Source: Pseudogulbenkiania sp. MAI-1 (lineage in GTDB: Bacteria; Pseudomonadota; Gammaproteobacteria; Burkholderiales; Chromobacteriaceae). From it: a DNA stretch of 32,000 nucleotides. A program made the position numbers and the translations under genes. This document shows positions 9,223-30,608 of the stretch, piece by piece. The stretch is from NCBI RefSeq assembly GCF_000527175.1, contig NZ_AZUR01000001.1:2170921-2202920 (forward strand), written 5' to 3'. Within the stretch, counting starts at the first letter, position 1, and every line of letters begins with the position of its first letter. A model generated the notes under the pieces. It had not been told where the DNA came from, did no database searches, and worked only from the letters and a program-made list of their open reading frames with translations.

Positions 9223-9501
9223 TCACAACAGATCCACAACCCGATACGTCGGCTGATTCCTGTTTTCGTCCAATGCCTGATCACGTCGATACGTGACCCA
9301 CCAGCGATACGAGTCGAGCACGAAACGGCGGTTGAAACGGCGAGCCATCCTCTGACGAACCATGTAGCGCTGGAAAACGGACTCGATCAGCCGATTGCCC
9401 AGGCGAAACAACAGCCACATCAGGTAAGGCAACATCGAGATCAAGGCCATCCACTGAAAGAACAGCTCCAGGTCGGCGCGGGTGATGACGTAGGTTTCCA
9501 T
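9223..9501 (-). CDS. Phage small membrane protein (92 aa), unknown function
   Basis: The start ATG overlaps the Zot stop (TAATG at 9499-9503). A hydrophobic segment (FFQWMALISMLPYLMWLLF) is followed by an Arg-rich tail. Confidence 0.55.
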   Translation of the reverse strand: METYVITRADLELFFQWMALISMLPYLMWLLFRLGNRLIESVFQRYMVRQRMARRFNRRFVLDSYRWWVTYRRDQALDENRNQPTYRVVDLL

Positions 9502-10643
9502 TACGAGTTGTCCTCCTTGGATGATTTCATGCCCCCGAAGGGCTGATAGGCCGGAGCCTGTTTAGAGGCCTCAAGCTGGGCGATCTGCGGGCCGCTGCCG
9601 GGCTGCTGATCAACCGGCTTGGCCTGAGCCACAACTGGCCCCGCGTACTGCGGCGCGGCCTTGTACGGGTTGTGCCGGCCGTTGGCGACGATGTCGCGGC
9701 AGGTCGGTTCGTCGACGGTCCTGATCAACGTGCCTTGCCCGCTGTAGCAGCTGCACCGGGTTGTGCTAGCAACGCAGGCGTCAGGCCATTCCATGTCTTT
9801 GACCTGGCGCTGGCTGTCGAAGATGGGAGCGGTCTCAGGACGGTTCAGGACGACCGGCTGAAAGTCGAGTGGGCGAACGCCGATCGGTGCCTGTACCGGT
9901 GCCGCGCCACCCTGCCCGCCCGCCCCCGCGCCCGGCTGCGCCGGTCTCGGGTCCGAGCTGGCGGTGGCCGCGGGCCTGTCCGGCGTCGTACGGCGTTTGA
10001 CGCTCCCGTAGACGTACCAGCCAGCAATGGACGCAAGCAGCAGACAAACCACGAAAACGATCAACGGCTTCGGGATGGAGTACTTTTGCTTGATGTGCAG
10101 GCTCGACGACTTGTACAAGTCGAAGACCTGTTTCGGGAGCTTGTACTTGCGCTTGGCCGCAATATCACGTTCGGTCTTGCTCTCAGCGTCGACCGCCTTC
10201 GGCCACTCATAGAGCTTGCGGCCGAAGAAGTTCGATTCGATGTGCAGGTGTTTGCCGGCCAGCGCCCGAACGTTGGCGTCCAGGAGAGTGGTCTTTTGCG
10301 TGATCAGCCAGAAATCGACCCCGGTATGGCGATGGGTCTCGAACGCGGCCACATAGTCCGGAACCTTGGAGCTTGTGTTGCGAGGGCGGTAAACGTTCTG
10401 CGCCTCATCAATGACGATGATCGACCCCGGTGGGAAGGTGAAAACAGGCTTCAGCAAGGACGGGTCTTCCTCGGCCGGCACCAACTTGGTCCACTCCGCC
10501 ACCGGAGGCACCAATTGATGATCGAGCTTGAGTTCAGGAATACCCATGGTGAAGATCGGGCGATTGCCTTCCAGCTCCTTCAGCAGCTTGACCGCCAGCG
10601 CGGTCTTGCCCGCCCCGGGCGTACCAGTGATCACGGTAATCAT
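9501..10643 (-). CDS. Zot / pI-like filamentous-phage assembly ATPase
   Basis: It has an N-terminal P-loop (MITVITGTPGAGKTALAVK), a Walker B-like IIVIDEAQ, a central TM helix (LIVFVVCLLLASIAGWYVY) and a Pro/Ala-rich periplasmic C-terminus. There is an ATGA overlap with the upstream gene. Confidence 0.9.
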   Translation of the reverse strand: MITVITGTPGAGKTALAVKLLKELEGNRPIFTMGIPELKLDHQLVPPVAEWTKLVPAEEDPSLLKPVFTFPPGSIIVIDEAQNVYRPRNTSSKVPDYVAAFETHRHTGVDFWLITQKTTLLDANVRALAGKHLHIESNFFGRKLYEWPKAVDAESKTERDIAAKRKYKLPKQVFDLYKSSSLHIKQKYSIPKPLIVFVVCLLLASIAGWYVYGSVKRRTTPDRPAATASSDPRPAQPGAGAGGQGGAAPVQAPIGVRPLDFQPVVLNRPETAPIFDSQRQVKDMEWPDACVASTTRCSCYSGQGTLIRTVDEPTCRDIVANGRHNPYKAAPQYAGPVVAQAKPVDQQPGSGPQIAQLEASKQAPAYQPFGGMKSSKEDNS

Positions 10644-10918
10644 GTCGTCAACACCCCGATGCGTTTCGTGACCACCAAACCAATGCGATAGGCCACCGCC
10701 CCGGAAAGAATGCCAAGGGCCTGCCCTGCCCCAGCCAGACCGAGCAGCGCAGCAACTGAGGGGATGATGCCGTTGAGGTTGTTCTGAATAAGCGTATTGA
10801 TCGCACCAAGGGCCGTACTCAGACCGGCATACGTAATAACGCCCAAGCCAATCGAGGCGAGCACCTGCTTGGCGGCGGGGGCGACCAGCGCAAACAACGC
10901 GGAAGCAAAGTTAGCCAT
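10640..10918 (-). CDS. pVI-like minor coat / membrane protein (DUF2523-like, 92 aa)
   Basis: The product is very hydrophobic and Gly/Ala-rich (MANFASALFALVAPAAKQVLASIGLGVITYAGL...). It sits in the conserved position between the pIII-like and Zot genes and overlaps both neighbours. Confidence 0.7.
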   Translation of the reverse strand: MANFASALFALVAPAAKQVLASIGLGVITYAGLSTALGAINTLIQNNLNGIIPSVAALLGLAGAGQALGILSGAVAYRIGLVVTKRIGVLTT

Positions 10919-12215
10919 CTTGTTTCATCCCAAACATGAGGTAGAGCGCCGCCAGACCGGCAAAGGCGATGACAATCGGTCGAATGCCTGTGGCGAAATC
11001 ACATGACGGCTGCCATGTCATAGCGACCGTGGCGAAATGAAGATGCAATTGCTGAGGGGCCGGGCACGTCGACGGCAGGCTGAACGGCGACCAGCTGAAC
11101 GTCGGGTTGATCTGCTGCTGGCCGATCTCGGGACCGCTGGGGGCATCGCCCCAATCCGAGCAGCCGATGCTGTTCGGCTTCTTGTCGCAGTCGGTTTTCT
11201 GTTCCTGCTGGGCGGTGCTGTTCTTGTAGGTCTGGTTGGTCTCGGTCTTGGTCGTTACCGAGTTGTCGGTGTTGTAGATATTGGTCGTCTTGGTCTGAAT
11301 GACGGATTCCTTAACCGGAGCCGGGTCTTCGGCAGGACGTTCGCCCAGGTCGATTTCCCACTTCAGCATTTCCTGTAGCTGGTAAGTCTCAGTCGAGCCG
11401 TCGGCATTCTGTTTGGTGCCGGTACCCACCAGCTTTTGCGGAGAGAGTGCGTCGGCGAGCTGCTGGATTTTGTTGGTGGCGTCCTGTAGCTCGATGTTGC
11501 GCTGAGCCAGCTCGCGCAGAACGTCGGCAGGCTGGGCATTCACGACCCCCTCAGCCTGTTGAAGAAAATCGGCATCGGTCGCCGGTTTCGGACTGGACGG
11601 ATTGATGTCATTTTCCCTGTAAACGTAAAAAGAGCCGCCGCCGACCCACGTAATGCGATGCGCCGTAGCACTATCAATCGTCTTGATCCAACAACCAGTT
11701 TTACCGTAATACGTGCAACCATAGGCCATGGCTTCATCATGAGTACCGTAAAAAATTGGATTACTCATGAAGCGCCACGTGCCAGAGTATTGCTCAGCAA
11801 CGGCAGGTTTCATCCATTGTTCGTTTGACCACTCCCAGCCCTGTTGAAGCAGCCACTGCGCCAGCACGGAGCCGGCTAATCCGACCGGTGACACGGACAT
11901 GCCTACCCGAGCGGCATTGACCACGCCGGACTTGGGTATCTTGGACAAGACGTTGACGGCCACCTGAGCCGCCGTACCGGTGGCCGCATCGCCCATCGCC
12001 TGTGACCACGAGCGGTTGACCTCGACGGTCGGGCCATTGACCGTGGCAGTAGCGCCAGCCCCCGCCGTCGCATTGCCTTGGGGAACGCGGTTCAGATTGC
12101 CGCCGCTGTGGCTGTAGCCATCGTTGACGGTCCAGCCCGCCGAGGCGTAGCCGGTCAGCAGCGTGGCAACGAAGCCGAGCAGGAAGAAAGCGAAGTTGCG
12201 GAGGTGGCGGTTCAT
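10911..12215 (-). CDS. pIII-like minor coat / host-attachment protein (434 aa)
   Basis: It has an N-terminal signal/anchor (FAFFLLGFVATLLTGYASA) and a C-terminal membrane anchor (IRPIVIAFAGLAALYLMFGM). Its size and position (after the small coat ORFs, before the pVI-like gene) fit gene III analogues. The sequence itself was not recognised. Confidence 0.65.
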   Translation of the reverse strand: MNRHLRNFAFFLLGFVATLLTGYASAGWTVNDGYSHSGGNLNRVPQGNATAGAGATATVNGPTVEVNRSWSQAMGDAATGTAAQVAVNVLSKIPKSGVVNAARVGMSVSPVGLAGSVLAQWLLQQGWEWSNEQWMKPAVAEQYSGTWRFMSNPIFYGTHDEAMAYGCTYYGKTGCWIKTIDSATAHRITWVGGGSFYVYRENDINPSSPKPATDADFLQQAEGVVNAQPADVLRELAQRNIELQDATNKIQQLADALSPQKLVGTGTKQNADGSTETYQLQEMLKWEIDLGERPAEDPAPVKESVIQTKTTNIYNTDNSVTTKTETNQTYKNSTAQQEQKTDCDKKPNSIGCSDWGDAPSGPEIGQQQINPTFSWSPFSLPSTCPAPQQLHLHFATVAMTWQPSCDFATGIRPIVIAFAGLAALYLMFGMKQDG

Positions 12216-12280
12216 CGCGTCAGCACCAGAGCGGCAAGCACCACCGAGGCGAAGCCGGCGAGGAAATAGGGATCGATCAC
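12212..12280 (-). CDS. Unlisted 22-aa hydrophobic ORF, pVII/pIX-like minor coat candidate
   Basis: The minus strand reads AGGAGGGCGCT-GTG ATC GAT CCC TAT TTC CTC GCC GGC TTC GCC TCG GTG GTG CTT GCC GCT CTG GTG CTG ACG CGA TGA, giving (M)IDPYFLAGFASVVLAALVLTR. A strong RBS precedes it. GTGA overlaps the upstream stop and ATGA overlaps the pIII-like start. Confidence 0.5.
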   Translation of the reverse strand: MIDPYFLAGFASVVLAALVLTR

Positions 12281-12588
12281 AGCGCCCTCCTAACGAGTTT
12301 GGCCGCGAAGGCAGCGAACATCACAGCAGCAACCAGCCAGCCAAGTGCCATGCCATCCAAAGTGCGGTCGAGGTTGGAACAGTCAGGAAAAGAAGAGACA
12401 GCCGTGGTGGACGACTGGAGGACCATCGAACCGCTCGCGGAGTCGTAGCGGTTCAGTTTCCAGACACCACCGTCGAGCTGGTATTGCGTGACGGTGGACC
12501 CGGAAACGGCAGGCGGTACGCCACCGAAGTAGACCGCTTCCGCCTCCGACTGCGATTCGTAGCAGGCTACCCCGACAGCGTACCCCAT
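12277..12588 (-). CDS. Phage protein with C-terminal membrane anchor (103 aa), possible minor coat protein
   Basis: It starts 3 nt after the major coat stop. The C-terminal TM segment is MALGWLVAAVMFAAFAAKLVRRAL. No family was recognised. Confidence 0.55.
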   Translation of the reverse strand: MGYAVGVACYESQSEAEAVYFGGVPPAVSGSTVTQYQLDGGVWKLNRYDSASGSMVLQSSTTAVSSFPDCSNLDRTLDGMALGWLVAAVMFAAFAAKLVRRAL

Positions 12589-12591
12589 GGC

Positions 12592-12792
12592 TTAAGCCGC
12601 CTTGCGCATGTACTTGAACGCGGCAATGCCGATGATGACCACCAGCACAGCGCCGCCGATTACGGCAGCATCGGTGCCGGCATCGTTCAGCGCGGTGGTC
12701 ACGGCAGCCGGAACAGCGGCCATGGCGGAGCCAGCAACAGCCAGGGTGGAACCGGCAACGGCAACGAGCTTGGTTTTCATGGATTTGAACAT
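12592..12792 (-). CDS. Major coat protein (pVIII-like, 66-aa precursor)
   Basis: AAGGAG lies 7 nt upstream of ATG 12792. The signal peptide is MFKSMKTKLVAVAGSTLAVAGSAMA. The ~41-aa mature part has an acidic N-terminus (NDAGTD), a hydrophobic core (AAVIGGAVLVVIIGIAAF) and a basic C-terminus (KYMRKAA). Confidence 0.85.
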   Translation of the reverse strand: MFKSMKTKLVAVAGSTLAVAGSAMAAVPAAVTTALNDAGTDAAVIGGAVLVVIIGIAAFKYMRKAA

Positions 12793-12837
12793 GGTGATAC
12801 TCCTTCAGGGTTATGCGCCGTAGCGCGGGGAAATCGG

Positions 12838-14004
12838 TTAGGCCGCTTGCTGGGCAGCTTGCTCGGCCTTCTGCACCGCTTGCAGGCTGAGCTTGCGCTG
12901 GTGGTCCCAGTACCACGCCGGGGCGTCCACCAGCGGGGTGATCTCGACCACCTTGATGACGGTGGAAAACTTGTGCAGCGTCGGCAGCGGTTCGCTGATG
13001 TCCAGGCCGTAGTCGCGCAGGCTCTTGGCGTGGCGGAAGAAGGTGGCGCGGGACATGAGGGCGCGGACGTTCTCGCCGCGCAGGAAGGCGGCGGCGGTGA
13101 CGCGCACCGGGGCCGGGAGGTCCTCCAGCTGGAAGCGGGTGACGTCGGCCTTGGTGCGGGCCAGCAGCGGGTCGACCTCACCCGCGAAGAGGTTGACGAG
13201 CTTGGTCATGGTGATGTCTCCGAGGAAACGCAGTGAGTTGTCACGCAACATGAGGCGGGAGGCTTCGAGTTCGAGCCGGACGATGCCTTGCTGATTACAG
13301 AACTGATAAACGGGGTCGGATTCAATTTCGGAACGTGGGCGCCCGTGACGGTGCACGAGCATTTCAGGGGCCTTCAGGTAGGCCTTGAGGTACTTCCGGC
13401 CTCCCTTGGTGCCCCATACGACGGTGGTCTCCCCTGCCCGGCCGCGCTTGACCTTGGAGAGCGATTGCGTGGCGAGCCAGTCAATCATGGCTTGGGCGTT
13501 GGCCGCCGAGCCGGTGGCGTAGTTGCGCGTCAGGTGCAGGGTGGAGACGCTGGCACCGGTCCATTCGGTGATCTGGCCGGTCTTGATGTCGTAGTCAGAC
13601 GGGTCTTGCTTTGCCACCTCTTCACCGGCGGTAAAAGGGGGCAAACCAAGCTCAGCCAGAATGCGGTTGATGCGGTCGAGGGTGGCGTCGAAGTCCAGGT
13701 TGAACAGGTTGTCGGGGCGACCGAAGCGGCCCACGTTGCCTTCGAACTCGACGCGTCGACCATCGCAACGGACGATGTACAGGGAGTCGAAGGAGCCCTC
13801 GAAGTGGCGGCGGCTGACGCTGATGTACTCGGGTTTCAGCGTGCCGTCCTCGAACTCCTCGAACTCGCCAGCTTCGTTGCGGGCGTATTTGCAGACCCAG
13901 CCGCTATCGACCATCGGCAGCTTTTCGAACTCGTTGGTGTCGAGGTCGAAGCGCAGCTGGTGCGACTGGCTGATGCGGATGAAGTCGACAAATACGCCTT
14001 GCAT
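12838..14004 (-). CDS. Rolling-circle replication initiation protein (gene II / Phage_CRI-like)
   Basis: 388 aa beginning MQGVFVDFIRISQSHQL...LYIVRCDGRRVEFEGNVGRFGRPDNLFNLDF..., resembling filamentous-phage/plasmid gene II/X-family initiators. ATG 14004 overlaps the upstream stop (TGATG). The track start at 14007 is TTG. Confidence 0.8.
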   Translation of the reverse strand: MQGVFVDFIRISQSHQLRFDLDTNEFEKLPMVDSGWVCKYARNEAGEFEEFEDGTLKPEYISVSRRHFEGSFDSLYIVRCDGRRVEFEGNVGRFGRPDNLFNLDFDATLDRINRILAELGLPPFTAGEEVAKQDPSDYDIKTGQITEWTGASVSTLHLTRNYATGSAANAQAMIDWLATQSLSKVKRGRAGETTVVWGTKGGRKYLKAYLKAPEMLVHRHGRPRSEIESDPVYQFCNQQGIVRLELEASRLMLRDNSLRFLGDITMTKLVNLFAGEVDPLLARTKADVTRFQLEDLPAPVRVTAAAFLRGENVRALMSRATFFRHAKSLRDYGLDISEPLPTLHKFSTVIKVVEITPLVDAPAWYWDHQRKLSLQAVQKAEQAAQQAA

Positions 14005-14333
14005 CAATGAACCCCTGCGGCCTTGTCGAGCTTGTAGGGGATGGCGACCTTGTAGTCCTGCACGTAGCCCTCGAGGCCCTTGCCGAACTTGTCCAGGCGC
14101 TGGCCGAGCACGAGCTCGACTTCGCAGGGGTACGGCAGGGTCAGGAACTTGGCGACGGCGGTTTCGTCGATCGGCAATTCGCTGATCTGGAAGCCAGCGG
14201 CCATCTTGTTGAAGGCCTCCGAGGAAACGTTCTCTTCAGGGCGCAGGACACGAACGAAGTGCATCTCGAACGGCTTGCCGGTTTTCTTGGCTTTGCCGTT
14301 CATCTTCACGACGGCGATGGCGGGGACTCTCAT
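14004..14333 (-). CDS. Phage protein (109 aa), possible ssDNA-binding/replication accessory protein
   Basis: It is translationally coupled to the replication gene, small and basic/beta-rich (MRVPAIAVVKMNGKAKKTGKPFEMHFVRVLRP...). The function is inferred only from size and position. Confidence 0.5.
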   Translation of the reverse strand: MRVPAIAVVKMNGKAKKTGKPFEMHFVRVLRPEENVSSEAFNKMAAGFQISELPIDETAVAKFLTLPYPCEVELVLGQRLDKFGKGLEGYVQDYKVAIPYKLDKAAGVH

Positions 14334-15579: not shown

Positions 15580-16368
15580 TCAACTAGTTGATGTAATCGG
15601 TTCGGCCGCCGCCTTCTGCAGCAGGCCGCTCCGTCGCTTGTCGCGTAGCCGGTAACTATCTCCCCGGATCGTGACCACCTGGCTGTGATGCAGCAGCCGA
15701 TCCAGGATGGCCGTTGCCACCACTGCGTCACCAAACACTTGGCCCCATTCCCCCACCGGGCGGTTGCTGGTGATCAGTAGGCTTGCCCGCTCATAGCGCC
15801 GCGAGACCAGCTGGAAGAACAGGTGCGCTGCCGCCGGCTCCAGCGGCAGGTAGCCCAATTCATCGACGATCAGCAGCTTGGGTTTCGATAGCTGCAACAG
15901 CTTCTCCTCCAAGCGCCCATCGGCATGCGCCTTCGTCAGTCCAGCCATCAGAGACGCAGCAGAACTGAACAGCACCGTGTAACCCCGTTCTACCGCCTCA
16001 CGCCCGAGTGCTACCGCCAAATGCGTCTTGCCGACTCCGGGCGGTCCCAGCAGCAACAACGCTTGACCGTGGCCAATCCAGCGCCCGGTGGCCAAATCCC
16101 GGACCTGGCCGGGATCAATCGACGGCTGCGCATCGAAGTCGAAGCCCTCCAGCGTGCGTACACAGGGGAATCGAGCCAGCTTCATCCCCATCTGGATGCG
16201 TCGCGTATCGCGCCGGGCCACCTCTCGCTCGGCCAGGAGCAGCAGCGCTTCGCGCAGTGTCATTTGGGCACGGCTCGCTTCGTCCAGCAGGCTATCCAGC
16301 TGATCCCGGATCGCCGTCAAGTGCAGCCGGGTCAACAGTTCTTCCAGTCGGTCGGGTTCGATCATCAC
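15580..16368 (-). CDS. istB: IS21 helper ATPase IstB
   Basis: 262 aa with LLLLGPPGVGKTHLAVALG (Walker A), LLIVDELGY (Walker B) and the typical IstB N-terminus LTRLHLTAIRDQLDSLL. There is an ATGA overlap with the istA stop. Confidence 0.92.
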   Translation of the reverse strand: MMIEPDRLEELLTRLHLTAIRDQLDSLLDEASRAQMTLREALLLLAEREVARRDTRRIQMGMKLARFPCVRTLEGFDFDAQPSIDPGQVRDLATGRWIGHGQALLLLGPPGVGKTHLAVALGREAVERGYTVLFSSAASLMAGLTKAHADGRLEEKLLQLSKPKLLIVDELGYLPLEPAAAHLFFQLVSRRYERASLLITSNRPVGEWGQVFGDAVVATAILDRLLHHSQVVTIRGDSYRLRDKRRSGLLQKAAAEPITSTS

Positions 16369-17582
16369 CAGCCCCCTCCGACCAATTCCTCATACTCTGC
16401 CAGCGGGCGCAGCAAAGCGCCGCCGTGTGGCGGGACCGGCTCGGATAGCGGCGGCACGACCCCAAGCAGATGGGCGCGGTCAATTTGCCGTCCGCGACTG
16501 CCGGCCAACTCGGCGTGATGCGCTACTTCCTGGCCGGCGTAATGGACCGTCACCGTGCCTGCTCGTACAACGACCGTGACCATCTCGCCGATCAGCCGCC
16601 AGGGCACGCTGTAGGCATTAGTATCGAGCTCGACACAGCCTTCGGCATTGACGCGACGGATCAGCTCCCGCACTTGCAGGAACGGCACTATGCCGGCAAC
16701 AGGACGCAGATGCGGACGTTCGCCGTCGAACCGCTCCTTGGGCGCCATGCCGGTCGTCCCGTGGATGCGGGTATCGGCCACCTCCCGCTGCCAGCGGGTC
16801 AAGTGAGCCTCCAATGCGGCCCAGCTCTCGAATGTGTAACCGGCGATAGCATTCTTCTTCACATAGCCAACGCCGTTCTCGGTCTTGCCCTTGGTGCGCG
16901 CACGGAACGGCGCGCAGGCCTTCACGCGCACATCCCAATGCCGGCAGAACGCCTCGAAGCGGCTATTGAAGCGGACCTGCCGGGTCTGCATGTCGTGCTC
17001 GACCACGAGGGCCTTGGCGTTATCGATCAGCAGAGTCTGCACCCGTCCACCGAAGTGCTCGAACGCCGCTTCGATACCGCCAAACCAAGCACTCTGCCGT
17101 TCGTGACGGAATGGGCAAACAAAGCCACGGCGCGAGTAGCCAAGCGTCGCCACGAACAGGTACACACGCACCAGTTCGCCACCGATCTGGATGCGCACTT
17201 GGCCGAAGTCGATCTGCATCTGCTCGCCAGGAGCAGTCTCGAACCGGATCGTCGCTCGCCGGCTGGCTTCAAGCTCCTGCCGATATGGCCGGCAGGCGCG
17301 TTCAACGGTGCGCAGGCTGGTGGCAATACCGTGTTCCTTAGCCAGCAGCTGACGCACCACGTCGCAGTTGCCCTTGTGCGTTAGAAACTGCTCACGTAGC
17401 CAGGCCTCGTGCCCGGTGAGCACGCCGCTGCGTTGCGGCTGCTGGTATGGCACCGGGCCGCCGGCACGCAAATAGTGCCGCACGGTATTTCGGGCGATTC
17501 CCAGCGTCTTGGCAATCCGCTTCGCCCCCCAGCCGGATTGCCCCAGTCGAACGATTGCCGTTACTGCTTCCGGCTCCAACAT
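16365..17582 (-). CDS. istA: IS21 transposase IstA
   Basis: It has an N-terminal HTH (SGWGAKRIAKTLGIARNTVRHYLR) and a DDE/integrase core (QMQIDFG...LFVATLGYSR...LLIDNAKALV...RTKGKTENGV). ATG 17582 is the preferred start; the track start at 17663 is an alternative. Confidence 0.9.
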   Translation of the reverse strand: MLEPEAVTAIVRLGQSGWGAKRIAKTLGIARNTVRHYLRAGGPVPYQQPQRSGVLTGHEAWLREQFLTHKGNCDVVRQLLAKEHGIATSLRTVERACRPYRQELEASRRATIRFETAPGEQMQIDFGQVRIQIGGELVRVYLFVATLGYSRRGFVCPFRHERQSAWFGGIEAAFEHFGGRVQTLLIDNAKALVVEHDMQTRQVRFNSRFEAFCRHWDVRVKACAPFRARTKGKTENGVGYVKKNAIAGYTFESWAALEAHLTRWQREVADTRIHGTTGMAPKERFDGERPHLRPVAGIVPFLQVRELIRRVNAEGCVELDTNAYSVPWRLIGEMVTVVVRAGTVTVHYAGQEVAHHAELAGSRGRQIDRAHLLGVVPPLSEPVPPHGGALLRPLAEYEELVGGGW

Positions 17583-17663
17583 CTCCCGTACTCCACAAAC
17601 CTCACGGGGTACAGGATGACTCGCTGAATACTGCGTTTCCAACGACTGCCTCCTTGCAAACAA

Positions 17664-22511: not shown

Positions 22512-24938
22512 ATGAGTGACGACTGTTTCCACTGCGGCCTTCCGGTTCCGGAGGGCGTCTCGTTCCCGGTACGCTATCGGGAAAGAACCGAATCCACCTG
22601 CTGCGCCGGCTGTCAGGCCGTGGCGCAGACCATCATCGATTCCGGACTCGACGACTATTACACCCACCGCACGCAGGGCGCCACGCAGGCCGAGGCGCTG
22701 CCGCTCGAACTCTTGGAGCGCATCCGCCTGTACGATTCGGATGAACTACAGCGAAGCTTCGTCCACCTCGAATCCGACAACGTGCGCGAGGCCGCGCTGA
22801 TTCTGGAAGGCATCACCTGTGCCGCCTGCGTCTGGCTCAACGAACAGCACCTGATGCGCCTACCCGGCGTGATCTCGGTCGACATCAACTACAGCAGCCA
22901 CCGCGCCCGGGTGCGCTGGGACAACTCGCGCCTGCAGTTGTCGCAGATCCTCGAGGCCATCGCCGCCATCGGCTACCGCGCCCACCCCTACGATGCGGCG
23001 CGCCAGGAGGCGCTGAACCAGAAGGAGCGCAAACAGGCGCTCACCCGGCTGTGGGTGGCCGGGCTGTCGATGATGCAGGTGATGATGTACGCCGTGCCGG
23101 TGTACATGGCGCCGGACGGCGAGATCGACCCGGATTTCTTGTGGATGCTGCACTGGGCCAGCCTGCTGCTGACGCTGCCGGTCATCGTCTATTCGGCGCT
23201 GCCGTTCTACCGCGCCACCTGGCGCGACCTCAGCACGCGCCGCGTCGGCATGGACACGCCGGTCACCATCGGCATCCTGGCCGCCTTCATCGCCAGCACC
23301 TGGGCGCTCATCAACAAGGTGGAACACGGCATCTATTTTGACTCGGTGTCGATGTTCGTGTTCCTGCTGTTGGGCGGTCGCTATCTCGAAGGTATCGCCC
23401 GCCGCAAGGCCGGCGAAGCGGCGGAAAGCCTGGTCAAGCTGATCCCGGCCTTCGCCCACCGCTTCAGCGGCTGGCCAGCCGAGCGCACCACACACGAGAC
23501 GCCGGTAAGCCAGCTGGCGGCGGGCGACGTGCTGCTGGTCAAGCCGGGCGAAACCATTCCGGCCGACGGCGTGGTACTGGATGGCGAGAGTGCCACCAAC
23601 GAATCGCTGCTGACCGGCGAAAGCCGGCCGGTGACTAAGACGGTGGATTCGGCCGTGATCGCCGGCAGCGTCAACCTGGCAAGCCCGCTGACGGTGCGCA
23701 TCAGCCAGACCGGGCAAGGCACCCGCCTGGCCGGCATCGTGCGCCTGCTCGATCAGGCGCTGGCGGAAAAACCGCGGCTGGCGCAACTGGCCGACCGTTT
23801 CGCCAGCGGCTTCGTCGCCGCGCTGTTGCTGGCAGCCCTGGCCACCTATCTCGGCTGGTACTTCGTCGACCCGGAACGGGCGCTGTGGATCACCGTGGCC
23901 GTATTGGTGATCTCCTGCCCGTGCGCCCTGTCGCTGGCCACGCCGGCGGCGCTGACCGCCGCCAGCGGCCACCTGGCCGGGCTGGGCGTGCTGACCACGC
24001 GCGGCCATGCACTGGAAACGCTGGCCAAGGTCAGCGACGTGGTGTTCGACAAGACCGGCACGCTGACCCATGGCGAGATGCGGCTGGTGGACACCTGGCG
24101 CTACGACGAGCAGGGAGACGTGCTCGCTCTGGCCGCCGCGCTGGAAGCCGGCTCGGAGCACCCGATTGCCCGTGCGCTGCTGGCGGCCGCTCCGGCAGAT
24201 CTCCCTCCAGCCCAATCGGTGCGCAACGTTCCGGGACAAGGCATCGAAGGGATCATTGACGGCACGGCCTGGCGACTGGGCAGCAGCGACTTCGTCGCCG
24301 AACTGGCCGGACCTTCTCCGTCTGCAGCCGGCGACTGGCAGCGCGGCCACACCCGGATCGCGTTGGGTTCGCAGCACGGCTGGGCGGCACTATTCGCCAT
24401 CGGCGACACGCGACGCGAGGACAGCGCCGCCACGGTGGCGGAACTCACCCGGCAGGGGCTGGCCGTCCACCTGCTGAGCGGCGACGAGCACGAGGCCGTG
24501 CAGCGGCTGGCCGAAGACACCGGTATCGCGCACGTCCGCGCGCGCGCCACGCCGGAGGACAAGCTGGCCTATGTCGGTGCGCTGCAACAGCAGGGAGGGC
24601 GCGTACTGATGGTGGGCGACGGCATCAACGACGCGCCGGTACTGGCGCGCGCCGACGTGTCGATGGCCATGGGTAGCGGCACCGACGTGGCCCGCGCCAG
24701 CGGCGACATGGTGCTGATCAACGACAGCCTGACGCTGGTCCCCGCCGCCATGGCCTTGTCGAGAAAGACGCTCGCCATCATCCGGCAAAACCTGATCTGG
24801 GCGGTGCTGTACAATATCGTTGCGCTACCGCTGGCGATGGCCGGTTATGTCACGCCCTGGCTGGCCAGCTTGGGGATGGCCAGCAGTTCGCTCTTGGTGG
24901 TGTGCAACGCCCTGCGTCTCGTGAAACGGAAGAACTGA
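22512..24938 (+). CDS. ccoI: Copper-translocating P1B-type ATPase of the CcoI/FixI type (cbb3 oxidase maturation)
   Basis: It has an N-terminal Cys-rich domain (CFHCGLPV...CCAGCQAV) and an HMA-like domain (GITCAACVW). P-type motifs are TGES, SCPCAL, DKTGTLT and GDGINDAP. ccoS follows immediately. Confidence 0.9.
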   Translation: MSDDCFHCGLPVPEGVSFPVRYRERTESTCCAGCQAVAQTIIDSGLDDYYTHRTQGATQAEALPLELLERIRLYDSDELQRSFVHLESDNVREAALILEGITCAACVWLNEQHLMRLPGVISVDINYSSHRARVRWDNSRLQLSQILEAIAAIGYRAHPYDAARQEALNQKERKQALTRLWVAGLSMMQVMMYAVPVYMAPDGEIDPDFLWMLHWASLLLTLPVIVYSALPFYRATWRDLSTRRVGMDTPVTIGILAAFIASTWALINKVEHGIYFDSVSMFVFLLLGGRYLEGIARRKAGEAAESLVKLIPAFAHRFSGWPAERTTHETPVSQLAAGDVLLVKPGETIPADGVVLDGESATNESLLTGESRPVTKTVDSAVIAGSVNLASPLTVRISQTGQGTRLAGIVRLLDQALAEKPRLAQLADRFASGFVAALLLAALATYLGWYFVDPERALWITVAVLVISCPCALSLATPAALTAASGHLAGLGVLTTRGHALETLAKVSDVVFDKTGTLTHGEMRLVDTWRYDEQGDVLALAAALEAGSEHPIARALLAAAPADLPPAQSVRNVPGQGIEGIIDGTAWRLGSSDFVAELAGPSPSAAGDWQRGHTRIALGSQHGWAALFAIGDTRREDSAATVAELTRQGLAVHLLSGDEHEAVQRLAEDTGIAHVRARATPEDKLAYVGALQQQGGRVLMVGDGINDAPVLARADVSMAMGSGTDVARASGDMVLINDSLTLVPAAMALSRKTLAIIRQNLIWAVLYNIVALPLAMAGYVTPWLASLGMASSSLLVVCNALRLVKRKN

Positions 24939-25114
24939 TGGAAAGCTTGTATCTGCTGATCCCGCTGAGCCTGGTGCTGGCCTTCGTGATCGGCTTCGTG
25001 TTCTGGATCGCTACTCGCGGCGGCCAGTTCGACGATCTGGAAGGGCCGGCCCACCGTATCCTGATGGATGACGACAAGCCGAAAGCAGGTCCCCACGGCC
25101 CACAGAACGAGTAA
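24938..25114 (+). CDS. ccoS: cbb3-type cytochrome oxidase assembly protein CcoS/FixS
   Basis: ATGA overlap with the ccoI stop. The 58-aa product is MESLYLLIPLSLVLAFVIGFVFWIATRGGQFDDLEGPAHRIL.... Confidence 0.85.
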   Translation: MESLYLLIPLSLVLAFVIGFVFWIATRGGQFDDLEGPAHRILMDDDKPKAGPHGPQNE

Positions 25115-25139
25115 GCTTCCCTCCCCCCGCCCTGGCCGT

Positions 25140-25982
25140 TCAACCGAGCGGCCAGGCGGAAGACAGCAGCCCATCCTGCTCGCCGCGATTCAATCCGGCC
25201 CGGCAGACCAGCCGGCAGAAAAACGACAGCACACCCCCTTCCTTCTCGCCTCCGCCATCGTTCCGCAGAGCCGGCAGCAGTGGCACCGCTTCCTCGAAGC
25301 GGACCTTGGCGGAATCGGCCACCGTGCCCGGCACCGCCACCGAAATCACATGGCACGGTTCCAGCCGCAAAGACACCCTCTGCCAGCCACTGTTCTCACC
25401 GGCCAGGGGTGAAGAAACCCCGCCATCGAGGGCAAGACAGCTCAACGGCCGTTCGAAGCCCTGCCCCGTTGCTTTCGCCACCGCCTCCTTGATGGTCCAG
25501 AGACGCAGCAGGCTCTCGGCCTGGCTGGCAGCGGGCAGTGCGCGCAAGGCCTGCATCTCGCCCGGCGCGCAGACCTGTGCCGCCACACCGAGCGGGTCTG
25601 GCCCGAGATGGCGCAGGCTTTCGACATCGGCCCCGACCTCGCCGCTTCGGCTGACCGCACAAAGCGCCAGCCCGTCCGCATGCGCCAGGCTGACGTGCAA
25701 CGGACAGGCGGACTCCGGCGCTACCGCCATCAGCCGCCCTCCAGGAGCGACTCTGAAATGCAACTGGTGCGGATCGGTGCCGGTCAACTCCGCCAGCATC
25801 GTCCGCACCAGTGCATGCGCGGCCAGATAGTCGCGTCGGGCTTCTGCCGGGTGACAGCGCACGTGGATCTCGCGCTCGTCGCTATCCAGCAACTCCAGCG
25901 CCTGCGCCGCGACGGCGGCATCCTCGAACGCCGCCGTGCGGACAAAGCGCACCAGGACGTCATACGGTGGCACGGCACGCAT
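25140..25982 (-). CDS. Sfp-type 4'-phosphopantetheinyl transferase
   Basis: Motifs are HVSLAHADG, GADVES and LWTIKEAVAKATGQG. The start is ATG 25982, or 26006 as in the track. Either one overlaps the 3' end of the upstream NRPS-like gene. Confidence 0.8.
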   Translation of the reverse strand: MRAVPPYDVLVRFVRTAAFEDAAVAAQALELLDSDEREIHVRCHPAEARRDYLAAHALVRTMLAELTGTDPHQLHFRVAPGGRLMAVAPESACPLHVSLAHADGLALCAVSRSGEVGADVESLRHLGPDPLGVAAQVCAPGEMQALRALPAASQAESLLRLWTIKEAVAKATGQGFERPLSCLALDGGVSSPLAGENSGWQRVSLRLEPCHVISVAVPGTVADSAKVRFEEAVPLLPALRNDGGGEKEGGVLSFFCRLVCRAGLNRGEQDGLLSSAWPLG

Positions 25983-28900
25983 GCTCCACCTCCTTTCGCT
26001 GATCAAGCCGGCTGCCGCGCCACGCTGCCGGAATCCCCGTCCAGGCAGTACCGGCAGGCAGCGTTTCGCCTTTCATTAGCAACGACAGCGCATCGAGCCG
26101 CGCGCCCTCTTCCATGACAGAGTCGTACAGCACAACCGAGTAGGCGCCCACCTCGGCGTCCGCGCCGACGTGCAGCGTGGAGGCCTTCAGCATCCGGTCT
26201 TCGAACAAGTGGGTCTGCATCACGCAGCTGTCGTTCAAGACGACGCGGTCGCCCAGGTTGACCAGATCGAACTCGAGAAAACCGGTGGTCGAGAGATAGA
26301 CGCGCCGGCCGATATGCACCCCGAGCAGGCGCAGATACCAGGGCAGCAAGGGCGTACCGCGCAGCGCCGCCAGCATCAGCGGCGTCGCCAGGAACTCGTA
26401 CAAGGCGTTGACCAGTTCCAGCCGCCAGACGAACAGGCTCCACAGCGGGTGCACGAACGGCCGGAAGCGTCCCATGATGCACCACTTCGCCAGCACCACC
26501 ATGCTAACCACCACGGCGCAGCAGGCCATGTAGACGAGCGGCAGCCACAGCAGCGCCACGGCCAGACCAACACTGTCGCGCAGCTGCATCATGGAAATGA
26601 CGACGCTGGCGGTGACGAGGATGAAGCCAGCCGGCGGCAACGTCACGCGCAGTATCTCGAAGCTGCCGCGCGCCCAGCGCAGCCAGGTCGGCGGATTATA
26701 CGTCCGCTGCTCGGTGAAGCCGGCACTCGGCTCACGCCGCGGCAAACGCAGCGGCGGAGAACCCAACCACGAGGCCCCGGTCTGGGCCGCCAGTTCCGGC
26801 GTCGGCGGGGAGATCGACAGCACGCCGACCAGCGAGTTGTCGCCCAGGGCCACGCCGCCCGGCACCACCGCGCTGTTGCCGATGAACACGCGCTGACCCA
26901 GGTGGGTGCGCCCCAGCGAGATCCAGCCGCCCTCGATGTGCGGCGGGCCGAGCGACACCTCGTCCGCGACAGTGCTGCCGTCGTCGAGCTGCAGCAAGTC
27001 GGGCATCGTCGAGCTGGCCGTCGACAGTTCGACCAGACGGCCGATCTTCGCGCCCAGCGCCCGGTACCACGGCGCCACGTAGAGCGTGGCGTGCAGCGGG
27101 CCGATCAGGCCGAGGCTCATCGCCATCAATTGATCGATGATCCAGTGCCGCAGATAAAAGCCGCTGTACAGCGGGTAACTGGCAGGCCGCACGCGGCCAA
27201 GCAGCAGCCACTTGAGGATGACCACTTCGGTGGTCAGCAGCAGCACGAAGGAAGCGCCGACCAGTGGTGTCGCCGCCAGATAACGAAATGGCTGTTCGAA
27301 GAGATCGATCGTGGTCAGGATCGCCATGCCCGGCACGATGGCGGCAAACATGACGAACGGCAAGATCAACACCAGCAGGCCGTAGAGCGCCAGCATCGCA
27401 GCGCGCTGCCGGCGGCGGCAGGCCGGCACCCGCCCCGGCACAGCCGGCGGATGCTCGTCCCGATGGGCAGGGGAGCCGGTCCAGGTCTCGCCCGCCGGGA
27501 TGCGTCCACCAAGAGGAAGCAGCGACAGGTCCGTCAGGCGGGAGCCATCCTCCATCACGGTGTGCTCGCGCAACACGGCGCGCGAACCGACGAAACAGCG
27601 GCGGCCGACGTTCACCGGCCCGATCACCAGTTCGTCGTCCTCGACCGTATAGCCGAGCAGCGAGGCATGGTCGTCGATGCTGGTGCCGTCCCCGATCGAG
27701 ATCAGGTCGAAGGCGGCCAGCTCGTCGCTACCAAGGTAGACGTCGCGCCCGATGCGGACCCCCAGCAGGCGGTACACCAGCGGCAGCAAGGGGGAGCCGG
27801 CAAGATGGTTGAGCGGCACCGCCCCGATCAGTCCGTGAGCGAACCACCAGCGCAGGTAGTAGCCGCCCCACAAGCGGTGACGGCCGGGGCGAATCCGTCC
27901 CAGCAGCAGCCACTTGGCGGCGATGGCGATAACGAGCAGCGCCGGGAACATCGCCACCACCGCAACGGCGGCCCAGGCTATCGACTCCGCTAGCGAATAG
28001 CCGTCCTCTTGCAGGAAGAAATACACCAGGTAAGGCGTCGCCCATTGCAGGGCACCGAAGGCAAAGTGGAAATACAGGCCGCCGCTCTGGAGCACGCCCG
28101 CCAGGAAGTGCCGCATTCCGGCCCCGGCATCCGAGCCGGGAGGCGGGGCCGTCTCGCCCAAGGTCAGCGTCTCGGTGGCGGACTCGTCGAGCATGGCGGC
28201 CAGCGAAGCAATGGTCGGATGGTGGTAGATGTCGGCCACCGAGACGTGAGCGAAGCGCGGTTCCTTGCGCAATGCCGACACCGCCCGCGCCGCCAGCAGC
28301 GAGTGGCCGCCCAGATCGAGGAAGAAGTCGTCGTCGACGCCGACCGGCTGGGGCCGGAACAGGCTTTCCCACACCACGGCCAGATATCGTTCGGTGCCGC
28401 TCTGCGGCCGCCCCGTCGCGGCGGCCAGAGGCTGGGCGCGCGGCTGCGGCGGCGGCAGGGCTGAACGATCGAGCTTACCGCTGGGCTGGCGCGGCAGCTC
28501 ATCCAGCGTCTCGATCAACGACGGTACCATGTAGGCGGGCAACTGCTGCCTCAGCGCACAGCGCAAGCCGGCTTCGTCGACCTGACACTCCATGCCGGGC
28601 ACCACGTAGCCGACCAGATGCTGGAGGCCCGGCTCGTCTTCACGTACCGCGCATGCTGCCGCGGTGATGCCATCGATTTGCAGCAACGCCGATTCGATCT
28701 CGCTCAACTCGACGCGAAAACCGCGCAGCTTGACCTGGGCATCGGCCCGGCCATGGTATTCGAGCTCGCCGTTATCGTCGAAGCGGCCCAGATCGCCGGT
28801 GCGGTACAGCTTGGCGCCAGTGCCTGCCGGGGCGAACGGGTCCGCCACGAAACGCGATGCGGTTTCGTGGGCCAGCCCGACGTAACCGCGCGCCACCCCC

Positions 28901-30027
28901 GCGCCCCCGATGCAGATCTCGCCCACCTCCCCGTGCGGCACCGGCCGCATGGCCTCGTCGAGCAGGTGCACGCGATAGCCCGGCAGCGGGCTGCCGATCA
29001 CCACCGGCTGTCCCGGCTGCAGATCGGCGCAGGTCGCGATGACCGTCGCCTCGGTCGGGCCGTAGGTATTCACCAGCCGCCGGCCGGGCCCGGCCCAGCG
29101 TTCCACCAGTTCCCGTGGGCACGCCTCGCCGCCCAGGATGAGCAGGCGCAGTGTCGGAACGTCCTCGGCGAGCATGGCCAGCAAGGTCGGCACGCACGAC
29201 AGCACGGTCACCCGGTGCTCACAGAGAAAGCCGGCCAGATCCGGGCCACCACAGGCCATCTCGGGAGGCGCACAGACCAGGGTGGCGCCGGCAAAGAATG
29301 CCAGCCACACCTCCTCGACCGACAGGTCGAAGCACAGCGAGGCGCCCTGGTAGACCCGGTCCCGCTGGTGAACCGAGAAGAGGCGCCCCTCGGCGCACAC
29401 CAGGTGCACGGCGTTGCGATGCTCGATCATCACGCCCTTGGGGCGGCCCGTCGAACCCGAGGTGTAGATGATGTAGCACAGGTCGTGCGACTCCACACCG
29501 ACCGTAGTGGCCGGCAGCCGCATCGGACTCTGCGCGGCGATCGCGGCACGCTCGGTATCGATCCGCAGCACGGCGCCATCGAACGCGCCGCACCGTGACG
29601 CCAATGCCGCTATGGTCAACAGGATGTCGGCAGACGAATCGCGCAGGATGTACAAGACCCGCTCGGCCGGATAAGCGGGGTCGAGCGGCACGTAGGCCGC
29701 CCCGGCCTTGAGGATGGCGAGCAGGGCGACATAGGCGTCCACGGAACGGGGCAGCAGCATCGCCACGCGCGAGCCGCGCCCGACGCCGTGGGCGCGCAGA
29801 TAGCGTGCCAGGCGGTTGGCGCGTCGCTCGAGGATGGCGTAACTGATGCGCTGATCGCCGGCAATCAGCGCGGTGGCGTCGGCACGATGGTCGGCCTGCC
29901 GTTCGAACAGTTCATGCAAGGCGGTGATGGAGGAGGTGCCCGTTGTATCGACACCATCAGGCCGGGTTTCAGAAGGGGTAACAGCGCGGGGAGGCGGGGT
30001 GGTCCGCAGAAGTTGTTTCAGCATCAT
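25960..30027 (-). CDS. Pls-type (epsilon-poly-L-lysine-synthetase-like) single-module NRPS: A domain, PCP, then three tandem [2 TM + soluble hexapeptide-like] units
   Basis: A-domain motifs are YIIYTSGSTGRPKGV, FDLSVEE, NTYGPTE, GEICIGGAGVARGY, YRTGDL and PSGKLDR. The PCP motif is FFLDLGGHSLLAARAV. The C-terminal half is a 3-fold internal repeat, each unit starting KW(L/C)(L/I)(L/M)GR(I/V/F)RP after two hydrophobic helices. No condensation or thioesterase domain is present. The start is ATG 30027 or 30024, after GGAGGA; the track start at 30129 is unlikely. Confidence 0.85.
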   Translation of the reverse strand: MMLKQLLRTTPPPRAVTPSETRPDGVDTTGTSSITALHELFERQADHRADATALIAGDQRISYAILERRANRLARYLRAHGVGRGSRVAMLLPRSVDAYVALLAILKAGAAYVPLDPAYPAERVLYILRDSSADILLTIAALASRCGAFDGAVLRIDTERAAIAAQSPMRLPATTVGVESHDLCYIIYTSGSTGRPKGVMIEHRNAVHLVCAEGRLFSVHQRDRVYQGASLCFDLSVEEVWLAFFAGATLVCAPPEMACGGPDLAGFLCEHRVTVLSCVPTLLAMLAEDVPTLRLLILGGEACPRELVERWAGPGRRLVNTYGPTEATVIATCADLQPGQPVVIGSPLPGYRVHLLDEAMRPVPHGEVGEICIGGAGVARGYVGLAHETASRFVADPFAPAGTGAKLYRTGDLGRFDDNGELEYHGRADAQVKLRGFRVELSEIESALLQIDGITAAACAVREDEPGLQHLVGYVVPGMECQVDEAGLRCALRQQLPAYMVPSLIETLDELPRQPSGKLDRSALPPPQPRAQPLAAATGRPQSGTERYLAVVWESLFRPQPVGVDDDFFLDLGGHSLLAARAVSALRKEPRFAHVSVADIYHHPTIASLAAMLDESATETLTLGETAPPPGSDAGAGMRHFLAGVLQSGGLYFHFAFGALQWATPYLVYFFLQEDGYSLAESIAWAAVAVVAMFPALLVIAIAAKWLLLGRIRPGRHRLWGGYYLRWWFAHGLIGAVPLNHLAGSPLLPLVYRLLGVRIGRDVYLGSDELAAFDLISIGDGTSIDDHASLLGYTVEDDELVIGPVNVGRRCFVGSRAVLREHTVMEDGSRLTDLSLLPLGGRIPAGETWTGSPAHRDEHPPAVPGRVPACRRRQRAAMLALYGLLVLILPFVMFAAIVPGMAILTTIDLFEQPFRYLAATPLVGASFVLLLTTEVVILKWLLLGRVRPASYPLYSGFYLRHWIIDQLMAMSLGLIGPLHATLYVAPWYRALGAKIGRLVELSTASSTMPDLLQLDDGSTVADEVSLGPPHIEGGWISLGRTHLGQRVFIGNSAVVPGGVALGDNSLVGVLSISPPTPELAAQTGASWLGSPPLRLPRREPSAGFTEQRTYNPPTWLRWARGSFEILRVTLPPAGFILVTASVVISMMQLRDSVGLAVALLWLPLVYMACCAVVVSMVVLAKWCIMGRFRPFVHPLWSLFVWRLELVNALYEFLATPLMLAALRGTPLLPWYLRLLGVHIGRRVYLSTTGFLEFDLVNLGDRVVLNDSCVMQTHLFEDRMLKASTLHVGADAEVGAYSVVLYDSVMEEGARLDALSLLMKGETLPAGTAWTGIPAAWRGSRLDQRKEVEHACRATV

Positions 30028-30608
30028 GCATCCTCCGTTAGCCGCCAGGGGAACGCGGCCACATATTGCACTCCCATGGGATACAAACCACGTGGAGGCA
30101 CGGATGGCTTCAAGAACGCCTGAAATCAAGAAGGCACGACGAAAGGCATAACGCCTGCCTGGGGCGGCGAATCATCAAGAATGAATAGGGACGGCGATGC
30201 CTGCATGCTCGGAAAAACCATGCGTTGCGGGCGTGGCCGCCTAGACGCCTGGCGTCCTGAAGCCGTTGGCTGACAGGGCTTCGGAAGCAGTCACCGTGAC
30301 AGCATGACCAATGGGTGCAGCCGACACGATGCACGAACTTAAAGAGACACGACAATCTGTTTGAAGTTCCTGTTACTGGTACCGTTGGCTGACAGCCAAA
30401 CGGGAATGGGCTAGCCTGCACTGTAGGCACCTGTCACCATGGCTGCTGTTTCCTATCACGTTCAAGCCTCGGCTTCTCGGTGCCTGCCAGCGAGAGTCTG
30501 CCGAAAACTGTCATCGTGGCGCGGCCACCGAATGGGCCGCGCATCGACACCCTGCCCTGCAGGGGGAGCGACTCTCTCCATCAGACACGGACCTTCATCA
30601 CGATTGCC

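Follow-up and report, generated by a model that had tools for sequence, protein, structure and literature searches.

The region analyzed here (the window) is a stretch of 32,000 nucleotides from Pseudogulbenkiania sp. MAI-1, a betaproteobacterium of the family Chromobacteriaceae (contig NZ_AZUR01000001.1, positions 2,170,921 to 2,202,920). On its minus strand it carries two overlapping genes, respectively coding for a single-module non-ribosomal peptide synthetase (NRPS) of the Pls/PosA family and an Sfp-type 4'-phosphopantetheinyl transferase (PPTase), which are delimited in window positions as follows:

25960..30027, minus strand: gene of the Pls/PosA-family single-module NRPS, by open reading frame and translation; 1355 amino acids (aa), corresponding to WP_084612662.1
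25140..25982, minus strand: gene of the Sfp-type PPTase; 280 aa, an exact match to RefSeq WP_024302799.1
25960..25995, minus strand: translational-coupling junction, read from the sequence, with the Shine-Dalgarno (SD) sequence AAGGAGG at 25989-25995 inside the 3' end of the synthetase gene

The synthetase frame is unbroken from an ATG at 30027, which is preceded by the SD sequence GGAGGA at 30031-30036, to a TGA stop at 25960-25962. An alternative TTG start at 30129 was rejected because it lacks an SD sequence, in contrast to the ATG at 30027, where RefSeq also places the start. The PPTase frame extends from an ATG at 25980-25982 to a stop codon at 25140-25142. WP_084612662.1, to which the synthetase is 100% identical, is named 'Pls/PosA family non-ribosomal peptide synthetase [Pseudogulbenkiania sp. 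MAI-1]'; the family assignment made in an initial annotation of this DNA is therefore correct, yet it was already present in the public databases. The synthetase is thus a real, correctly interpreted and uncharacterized member of an already described family. The novelty that the initial annotation had claimed for a polycation synthetase in this lineage was overstated: besides the existing name, the specificity code of its adenylation domain, DLESIGTVIK, is tabulated in the literature (PMC10522769), PosA-type enzymes of beta- and gammaproteobacteria are known, and the family includes hundreds of clusters at 50% identity.

Profile matches and internal repeats divide the synthetase into the following parts:

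28438..29922, minus strand: adenylation (A) domain, aa 36-530, by Pfam AMP-binding and AMP-binding_C and by TIGR01733; core motifs intact
28168..28395, minus strand: carrier domain (thiolation, T, or peptidyl carrier protein, PCP), aa ~545-620, by Pfam PP-binding; motif LGGHS, with Ser576 as the phosphopantetheine attachment site
27442..28110, minus strand: unit 1, aa 640-862; transmembrane helices TM1-TM2, KWLLLGRIRP, LGVRIGR, a left-handed beta-helix (LbH) and GETWTGSP
26728..27420, minus strand: unit 2, aa 870-1100; TM3-TM4, KWLLLGRVRP, LGAKIGR, an LbH with the Pfam Hexapep match, and GASWLGSP
26002..26670, minus strand: unit 3, aa 1120-1342; TM5-TM6, KWCIMGRFRP, LGVHIGR, an LbH and GTAWTGIP

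In the Pfam scan the protein shows AMP-binding (aa 41-382), AMP-binding_C (443-518), PP-binding (558-613) and Hexapep (~1041-1068) and no Condensation, Epimerase or Thioesterase domain, which agrees with the single A domain and single PCP described in the initial annotation. The A domain matches TIGR01733 at 440 bits (NCBIfam). In the carrier domain all of 120 homologues share G574, and at least 90% conservation is seen for H575 and S576. The C-terminal half, for which a search with a TIGR02353-type profile had been recommended, matches this Pls/PosA family model from aa 651 to 1334, spanning profile positions 7-695 of 695, with 628.2 bits against a curated cutoff of 423.1 (NCBIfam). This match, taken together with the three repeats, contradicts the possibility that the C-terminal half is unlike the tandem domains of Pls.

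The three units are 32-39% identical to each other, with alignment z-scores of 23-50 relative to shuffled sequences, a likeness that by this comparison is far beyond chance. The motifs by which they had been recognized could all be located, with KWLLLGRIRP, KWLLLGRVRP and KWCIMGRFRP starting at aa 705, 939 and 1181, LGVRIGR, LGAKIGR and LGVHIGR at 755, 991 and 1235, and WTGSP, WLGSP and WTGIP at 849, 1087 and 1329. A Kyte-Doolittle hydropathy scan and an AlphaFold2 model both point to six long hydrophobic helices arranged as three pairs, one pair ahead of each unit, as expected from the two-helix-plus-soluble-domain repeat originally proposed. In the model, which covers the C-terminal 715 aa and drew on 45 homologues (pLDDT 89.8, pTM 0.89), the predicted helix pairs alternate three times with beta-helical segments. 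The overall architecture can hence be written as A-T-(TM2-LbH)x3, the equivalent of the A-T-(TM2-C1)-(TM2-C2)-(TM2-C3) layout of the Pls-type enzymes, and the protein is 35.7% identical to PosA of Acinetobacter baumannii. Searches of the PDB by sequence (phmmer) and fold (Foldseek) recovered only trimeric LbH acyltransferases and gamma-carbonic-anhydrase-like proteins, each matching a single subdomain; the stretch of unit 1 is likewise matched by such LbH and gamma-carbonic-anhydrase-like entries. No structure of a Pls-type polymerization domain was found by sequence or fold in the PDB copy searched (to April 2026), the whole-domain TMq being at most 0.15.

The synthetase appears intact throughout. 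The core motifs A3, A5, A7, A8 and A10 of the A domain and the LGGHS of the carrier are preserved. In an alignment of 59 sequences that are 32-64% identical and include PosA, it keeps every invariant residue of the C-terminal domain, among them Q647, K705, W728, E1000, S1002, A1021, D1022, F1048, G1050 and N1051, as well as the near-invariant stretch Q1271-R1278. Most of the residues invariant across the family lie in unit 2 (E1000, S1002, A1021, D1022, F1048, G1050, N1051), and the near-invariant stretch corresponds to a QTHLFEDR motif (aa 1271-1278) in the LbH of unit 3, which is also found in PosA. Comparison with the orthologue of P. subflava gives a ratio of nonsynonymous to synonymous substitution rates (dN/dS) of 0.22 for the whole gene, with 0.17-0.28 in the individual domains, values that place it under purifying selection. 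These observations bear on the possibility that the gene is an inactive relic or pseudogene left by horizontal transfer. Such an origin would be in keeping with its seemingly patchy occurrence in the genus, represented among the hits by no more than MAI-1, P. subflava and two Pseudogulbenkiania sequences from the environment, with its position next to a variable junction and with a GC content slightly above that of the neighboring genes. Against this stand the unbroken frame of 1355 codons, the intact A-domain and carrier motifs, the low dN/dS, the presence of all family-invariant residues and the translational coupling of the PPTase through a strong SD sequence, so that we consider a relic very improbable.

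The second gene overlaps the 3' end of the synthetase gene by 23 nucleotides, as the initial annotation had described, and its ATG lies six bases past the AAGGAGG of the junction. Its product belongs to Pfam ACPS (PF01648; 52.8 bits against a cutoff of 25) and contains the motifs GADVES and WTIKEAVAKA, which fit the patterns G-x-D and (W/F)-x-x-KE-(A/S); with 280 aa it falls within the ~230-280 aa range of the Sfp-type enzymes. It is not a HetI orthologue, since its score with the HetI equivalog model (84 bits) is below the cutoff of 370. The association of the two genes recurs beyond MAI-1. Where the sequence of a related metagenome locus extends far enough past the synthetase gene, a PPTase gene may follow directly downstream in the same orientation; this holds for 14 of 33 loci of the near clade and for 5 of 34 loci that are more distant. 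It is also directly downstream, with a 17-nucleotide overlap, in a distant homologue (L003) on a 1.66-Mb contig. In a clustering of flanking open reading frames from 41 related loci the PPTase was the only recurrent neighbor; the other recurrent flanking 'families' of these loci were spurious alternative-frame reading frames within the GC-rich synthetase gene and were discarded.

The nearest relatives of the synthetase are three other Pseudogulbenkiania sequences (80-85% identity). Beyond the genus identity is at most 65%, the relatives being soil and sediment metagenome proteins, labeled by their sources as metagenome-assembled genomes (MAGs) of Acidobacteriota, Verrucomicrobiota, Myxococcota and Bathyarchaeota. 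A search with the C-terminal domain against 1.84 billion representatives at 50% identity returned 766 clusters at E <= 1e-30, and the family is therefore large. A scan of genome contigs with the full protein was set aside as having no taxonomic value: its patterns derived mostly from generic A-domain motifs, about 70 of the 80 loci were ordinary NRPSs, and Pseudogulbenkiania was not recovered. Six of the representatives from the search with the C-terminal domain (P0137, P0140, P0200, P0205, P0273 and P0275) have 1500-1890 aa. Their Pls-type C-terminal domain either begins at residue 800-1340 or has several hundred extra residues after it, and they would represent variant architectures that include further domains. 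A full-length gene of the family, whose product is 51% identical to the window protein, occurs in a MAG labeled Klebsiella pneumoniae (L007, CALQJI020000013.1); this label probably reflects a binning or labeling artefact, or else a mobile copy.

The substrate of the enzyme was approached through the binding pocket of its A domain. Alignment with 120 homologues and residue-level alignment to PosA (8g95/8g97) and Pls (7wew) give the Stachelhaus code DLESIGTVIK, which is exactly the one earlier derived by hand. It includes the acidic residues expected for a basic side chain, D234 (Stachelhaus 235) and E238 (Stachelhaus 239), both of which are invariant in the 120 homologues and in the 59-sequence alignment. 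When the 121-aa A4-A5 segment (aa 225-345, window 28993-29355) is compared with the PDB, the top scores go to PosA (122.7 bits) and Pls (111.3 bits), and all other NRPS A domains reach at most 62 bits. The ranking is reversed for the whole A domain, where Pls and PosA fall behind ordinary NRPS A domains (5U89 with 404 and TycA with 389 bits, against 320 for Pls). A PosA/Pls-like pocket within an otherwise ordinary NRPS-like A domain could be due to a mosaic history or to a strong constraint on the pocket subdomain.

Published codes (PMC10522769 Suppl. Table 2) include DAESIGTVVK for Pls (Lys), DMEHNGTVSK for PosA (Orn), codes beginning DFE for the diaminopropionic acid (Dap), diaminobutyric acid (Dab) and D-Dab enzymes, and DGESVSVVNK for the beta-Lys enzyme, whereas DLESIGTVIK is listed for a Thaumarchaeota protein as '#, uncharacterized binding pocket'. 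The MAI-1 code agrees with that of Pls at 8 of 10 positions, having Leu instead of Ala at position 2 and Ile instead of Val at position 9, and with that of PosA at 6 of 10, the differences being at positions 2, 4, 5 and 9; neither the Lys-type nor the Orn-type code is thus matched. The earlier description of the pocket as close to the lysine signature holds for the eight shared positions and fails at position 2, where Leu235 (codon CTG, 29323-29325) occupies the chain-length gate. The residue at this position touches the side-chain methylenes of the substrate and is Phe in the Dap and Dab enzymes, Met for Orn, Ala for Lys and Gly for beta-Lys (PMC10522769). Its importance is underscored by the PosA mutant M218A, in which kcat/KM for Lys rises about 10-fold (PMC10522769). 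As Leu is near Met in size, ornithine is at least as likely a substrate as lysine. Judged by its code, the pocket is that of a lysine enzyme with a gate sized for ornithine, and the sequence cannot call the monomer. An Rfam scan of the whole window gave no match, and hence no lysine or other upstream riboswitch that could offer a clue to it. We lean slightly towards L-ornithine over L-lysine: on the code, L-ornithine may tentatively be put forward as the monomer, L-lysine is a possible one, and a different basic monomer appears rather doubtful.

One competing account is that the protein is a plain orthologue of the epsilon-poly-L-lysine synthetases, with L-lysine as monomer and a neutral change from Ala to Leu at position 2. 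The eight positions shared with Streptomyces albulus Pls, which include all polar residues of the pocket, agree with this account, as does the distribution of codes among the 120 closest homologues: DLESIGTVIK is found in 75, DLESIGTVTK in 15, DAESIGTVIK in 24 and the exact Pls code in 2, and position 2 is Leu in 91 and Ala in 29. The Ala and Leu forms are interspersed even in groups whose C-terminal domains are 70% or more identical, a sister group at ~39% identity is mostly DAESIGTVIK, and the locus has no adjoining genes for a non-proteinogenic monomer. On the other side, position 2 is an experimentally supported gate at which Leu has about the size of Met, and the published table (PMC10522769) lists this code as uncharacterized and not as Lys. 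Furthermore, the codons for Ala (GCN) and Leu (CTN/TTA) at this position are at least two bases apart, and no Val, Pro or Ser intermediates occur in ~180 sequences, a pattern that looks like selection between discrete states and not like drift. Taken together, the plain lysine synthetase is a possibility to be reckoned with, though short of the favored one.

The alternation at position 2 may itself carry functional information. Parsimony on a neighbor-joining tree of the 120 relatives, a crude tree, requires at least 13 changes at this position, against a mean of 26 with shuffled labels. Such a pattern could represent a recurrent, selected switch between two specificity states, or neutral alternatives. 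It is conceivable, if speculative, that the widespread soil clade with DLESIGTVIK, to which the MAI-1 gene belongs, makes a polycation unlike that of its Ala-type sisters, either a delta-poly-ornithine that arose independently of PosA or an undescribed polymer, and that the Ala/Leu switch is one of monomer specificity.

A third account invokes another basic monomer, such as L- or D-Dab, Arg, or a hydroxylated or beta-amino acid, which would yield an undescribed polycation. In its favor, the code is the one flagged as an uncharacterized pocket, and relatives with odd codes take unexpected substrates: an A domain from Bdellovibrionales is modestly active with Arg, and DGESVSVVNK corresponds to beta-Lys. 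The published tree also places archaeal sequences of unassigned substrate in a fourth group together with the Dap, Dab and beta-Lys enzymes (PMC10522769). However, the Dab, Dap and beta-Lys enzymes have Phe or Gly at position 2 and other residues at positions 4-7, and the Dab synthetase clusters bring their own monomer-supply genes (PMC8117764), of which there are none at the MAI-1 locus. We therefore regard this account as unlikely.

On the whole, we think it quite likely that the two genes form a functional operon whose synthetase, a member of the Pls/PosA family, makes a cationic homo-poly(amino acid) of short chain length. The present analysis establishes the domain architecture, the place in the family, the intactness of the motifs, the purifying selection and the recurrent linkage to a PPTase; the chemistry and the iterative mechanism are transferred by analogy from S. 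albulus Pls and A. baumannii PosA, as described in PMC9205021 and PMC10522769. By this analogy, the co-translated PPTase would convert Ser576 of the carrier into the holo form, and the A domain would adenylate a basic L-amino acid, with Asp234 holding its alpha-amine and Glu238 its side-chain amine, before loading it on the carrier as a thioester. The C-terminal domain's left-handed beta-helices, three in number, would pack into a pseudo-trimer on a bundle of six membrane helices. There the thioester would be attacked by a side-chain amine, first that of a free monomer and later that of the non-covalently held growing chain, and repeated transfer would give an isopeptide-linked polycation that is released or exported.

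Several observations weigh against this proposal. The synthetase orthologue of P. subflava lacks an adjoining PPTase gene, and the pairing is therefore not obligatory. Comparison of window positions 25075-26013 with positions 12005-12240 of the P. subflava locus (L001) shows a clean presence/absence difference: a PPTase segment of ~940 bp is absent from the latter, and homology resumes on both sides (78% in the synthetase, 86% in ccoS-ccoI), so that the PPTase gene is an insertion or deletion between the two congeners. No genes for monomer supply, a peptidase, export or self-protection were found among the neighbors of the synthetase. The intactness of the catalytic residues of C1-C3 is suggested by conservation alone. 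The alternation at position 2 among close relatives could mean that this residue leaves the substrate unchanged, which would favor lysine. Finally, a literature search found no enzyme with the code DLESIGTVIK characterized in 2024-2026.

There is also a non-polymerizing alternative, in which the LbH domain would make a single aminoacyl transfer to an acceptor of the membrane or envelope, for example a glycan or the head group of a lipid, with an outcome like that of Dlt or MprF, namely aminoacylation of the cell surface. For such a role one may cite the LbH fold, which is that of small-molecule acyltransferases, the embedding of the enzyme in the membrane, the lack of export or self-resistance genes near the locus, and the very wide spread of the clade among soil bacteria, in which a polycation has never been reported. 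Nevertheless, all characterized members of TIGR02353 make a homopolymer, the C-terminal score is far above the cutoff of this equivalog-domain model, and all residues shared with PosA are kept. Single transfer hence appears improbable, and polymerization is retained as the preferred function.

The genes and the intergenic region that flank the pair are:

22512-24938: copper P-type ATPase gene (ccoI), convergent with the synthetase pair
24938-25114: ccoS, part of the convergent ccoI-ccoS unit
30028..30608, no strand: intergenic region between the synthetase gene and the divergent P-type cation ATPase gene, containing the SD sequence GGAGGA at 30031-30036
from 30609, divergent from the synthetase gene: type II/III P-type cation ATPase gene

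No sigma-70 consensus site was found in a promoter scan of the intergenic region 30028-30608, and the terminator-like matches all lay within coding sequence and were discarded. The intergenic region is 78% identical to that of P. subflava up to window position 30422, upstream of which the two genomes diverge; the synthetase locus thus adjoins a variable junction. In P. subflava the synthetase gene occupies the same place beside ccoS-ccoI, and on its other side there is a major facilitator superfamily (MFS) gene in place of the P-type ATPase gene. A functional link between the synthetase and the divergent ATPase was rejected, the latter being a generic cation pump that P. subflava replaces with the MFS gene.

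Elsewhere in the window, positions 2328-5123 (plus strand) encode a 931-aa fusion protein in which a carrier domain at aa 33-86 is joined to a fatty acyl-AMP ligase at 121-663 and a PlsC-type acyltransferase at 746-869. This is a second phosphopantetheine-dependent enzyme of the window, probably with a role in lipid remodeling or the formation of an N-acyl lipid. A remnant of a filamentous-phage (inovirus-like) prophage spans ~9500-14010 (minus strand) and has a lower GC content of 0.57-0.60; it includes the following genes:

9501-10643, minus strand: Zot-family assembly ATPase
12838-14007, minus strand: G2P/CRI replication initiator

An IS21-family insertion sequence occupies 15580-17663 (minus strand), with IstB at 15580-16368 and an IstA-type transposase, containing rve and Mu-transposase C-terminal domains, at 16365-17663.

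The synthetase adds no new class of system: architecture and mechanism of its family, like the family itself, have been described before, and the RefSeq name is correct. If the genes are expressed, MAI-1 would add one more natural producer to those of polycations that serve as antimicrobials, food preservatives and cell-penetrating agents. A cultivable betaproteobacterial source with its own activating PPTase would also be a convenient cassette for heterologous expression. Characterization of the enzyme would give a substrate to the DLESIGTVIK pocket, which is common to many uncultured Acidobacteriota, Verrucomicrobiota and archaeal MAG proteins, and would test the chain-length rule at position 2.

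Among the known systems, S. albulus Pls (BAG68864.1; A domain 7WEW) has the same A-T-(TM2-C1)-(TM2-C2)-(TM2-C3) layout and likewise lacks C (condensation) and TE (thioesterase) domains. Its A4-A5 segment aligns with that of the MAI-1 protein at 111 bits, and the codes DAESIGTVVK and DLESIGTVIK share 8 of 10 positions. The MAI-1 system differs in its host, which is a betaproteobacterium and not an actinomycete, in the presence of the PPTase gene in the operon, and in the lack of an adjoining pldII-type peptidase gene. A. baumannii PosA (ATY43264.1; 8G95-8G98; PMC10522769), which synthesizes delta-poly-L-ornithine, is related over aa 37-1334 at the identity given above. It is the best PDB match of the A4-A5 segment and likewise comes from a proteobacterium. 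It shares the QTHLFEDR, KW..GR and W.G.P motifs and has a bulky aliphatic residue at position 2, where PosA has Met and the MAI-1 protein Leu. In contrast, only 6 of 10 code positions agree, and PosA is encoded in a single-gene operon without a PPTase (PMC10522769). The A domain of PosA is also reported to contain a 16-residue insertion relative to the epsilon-poly-L-lysine synthetase (PMC10522769).

The identical code DLESIGTVIK is found in the Thaumarchaeota cationic homo-poly(amino acid) synthetase homologue OLE40053.1, which is likewise uncharacterized (PMC10522769 Suppl. Table 2), as are an alphaproteobacterial group with DLED(I/L)GTV(T/V)K and a fungal homologue with DIESIGTVTK (PMC10522769 Suppl. 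Table 2). The nearest clade of the MAI-1 protein is similarly broad and, at 56-65% identity, takes in Acidobacteriota, Verrucomicrobiota, Myxococcota and archaeal MAGs. The soluble domains are each matched, by sequence (E-values to 1e-6) and by fold, by LbH acyltransferases and gamma-carbonic-anhydrase-like proteins, such as serine acetyltransferase (4N6B), galactoside acetyltransferase (3FTT) and YrdA (3TIO), and the published model of PosA packs its three beta-helices as in the trimers of these proteins (PMC10522769). Unlike these trimers, the beta-helices of the MAI-1 protein lie in a single chain, are non-identical (32-39%) and are tethered to six membrane helices, and by analogy with Pls and PosA the acyl donor would be a carrier-protein thioester instead of acyl-CoA.

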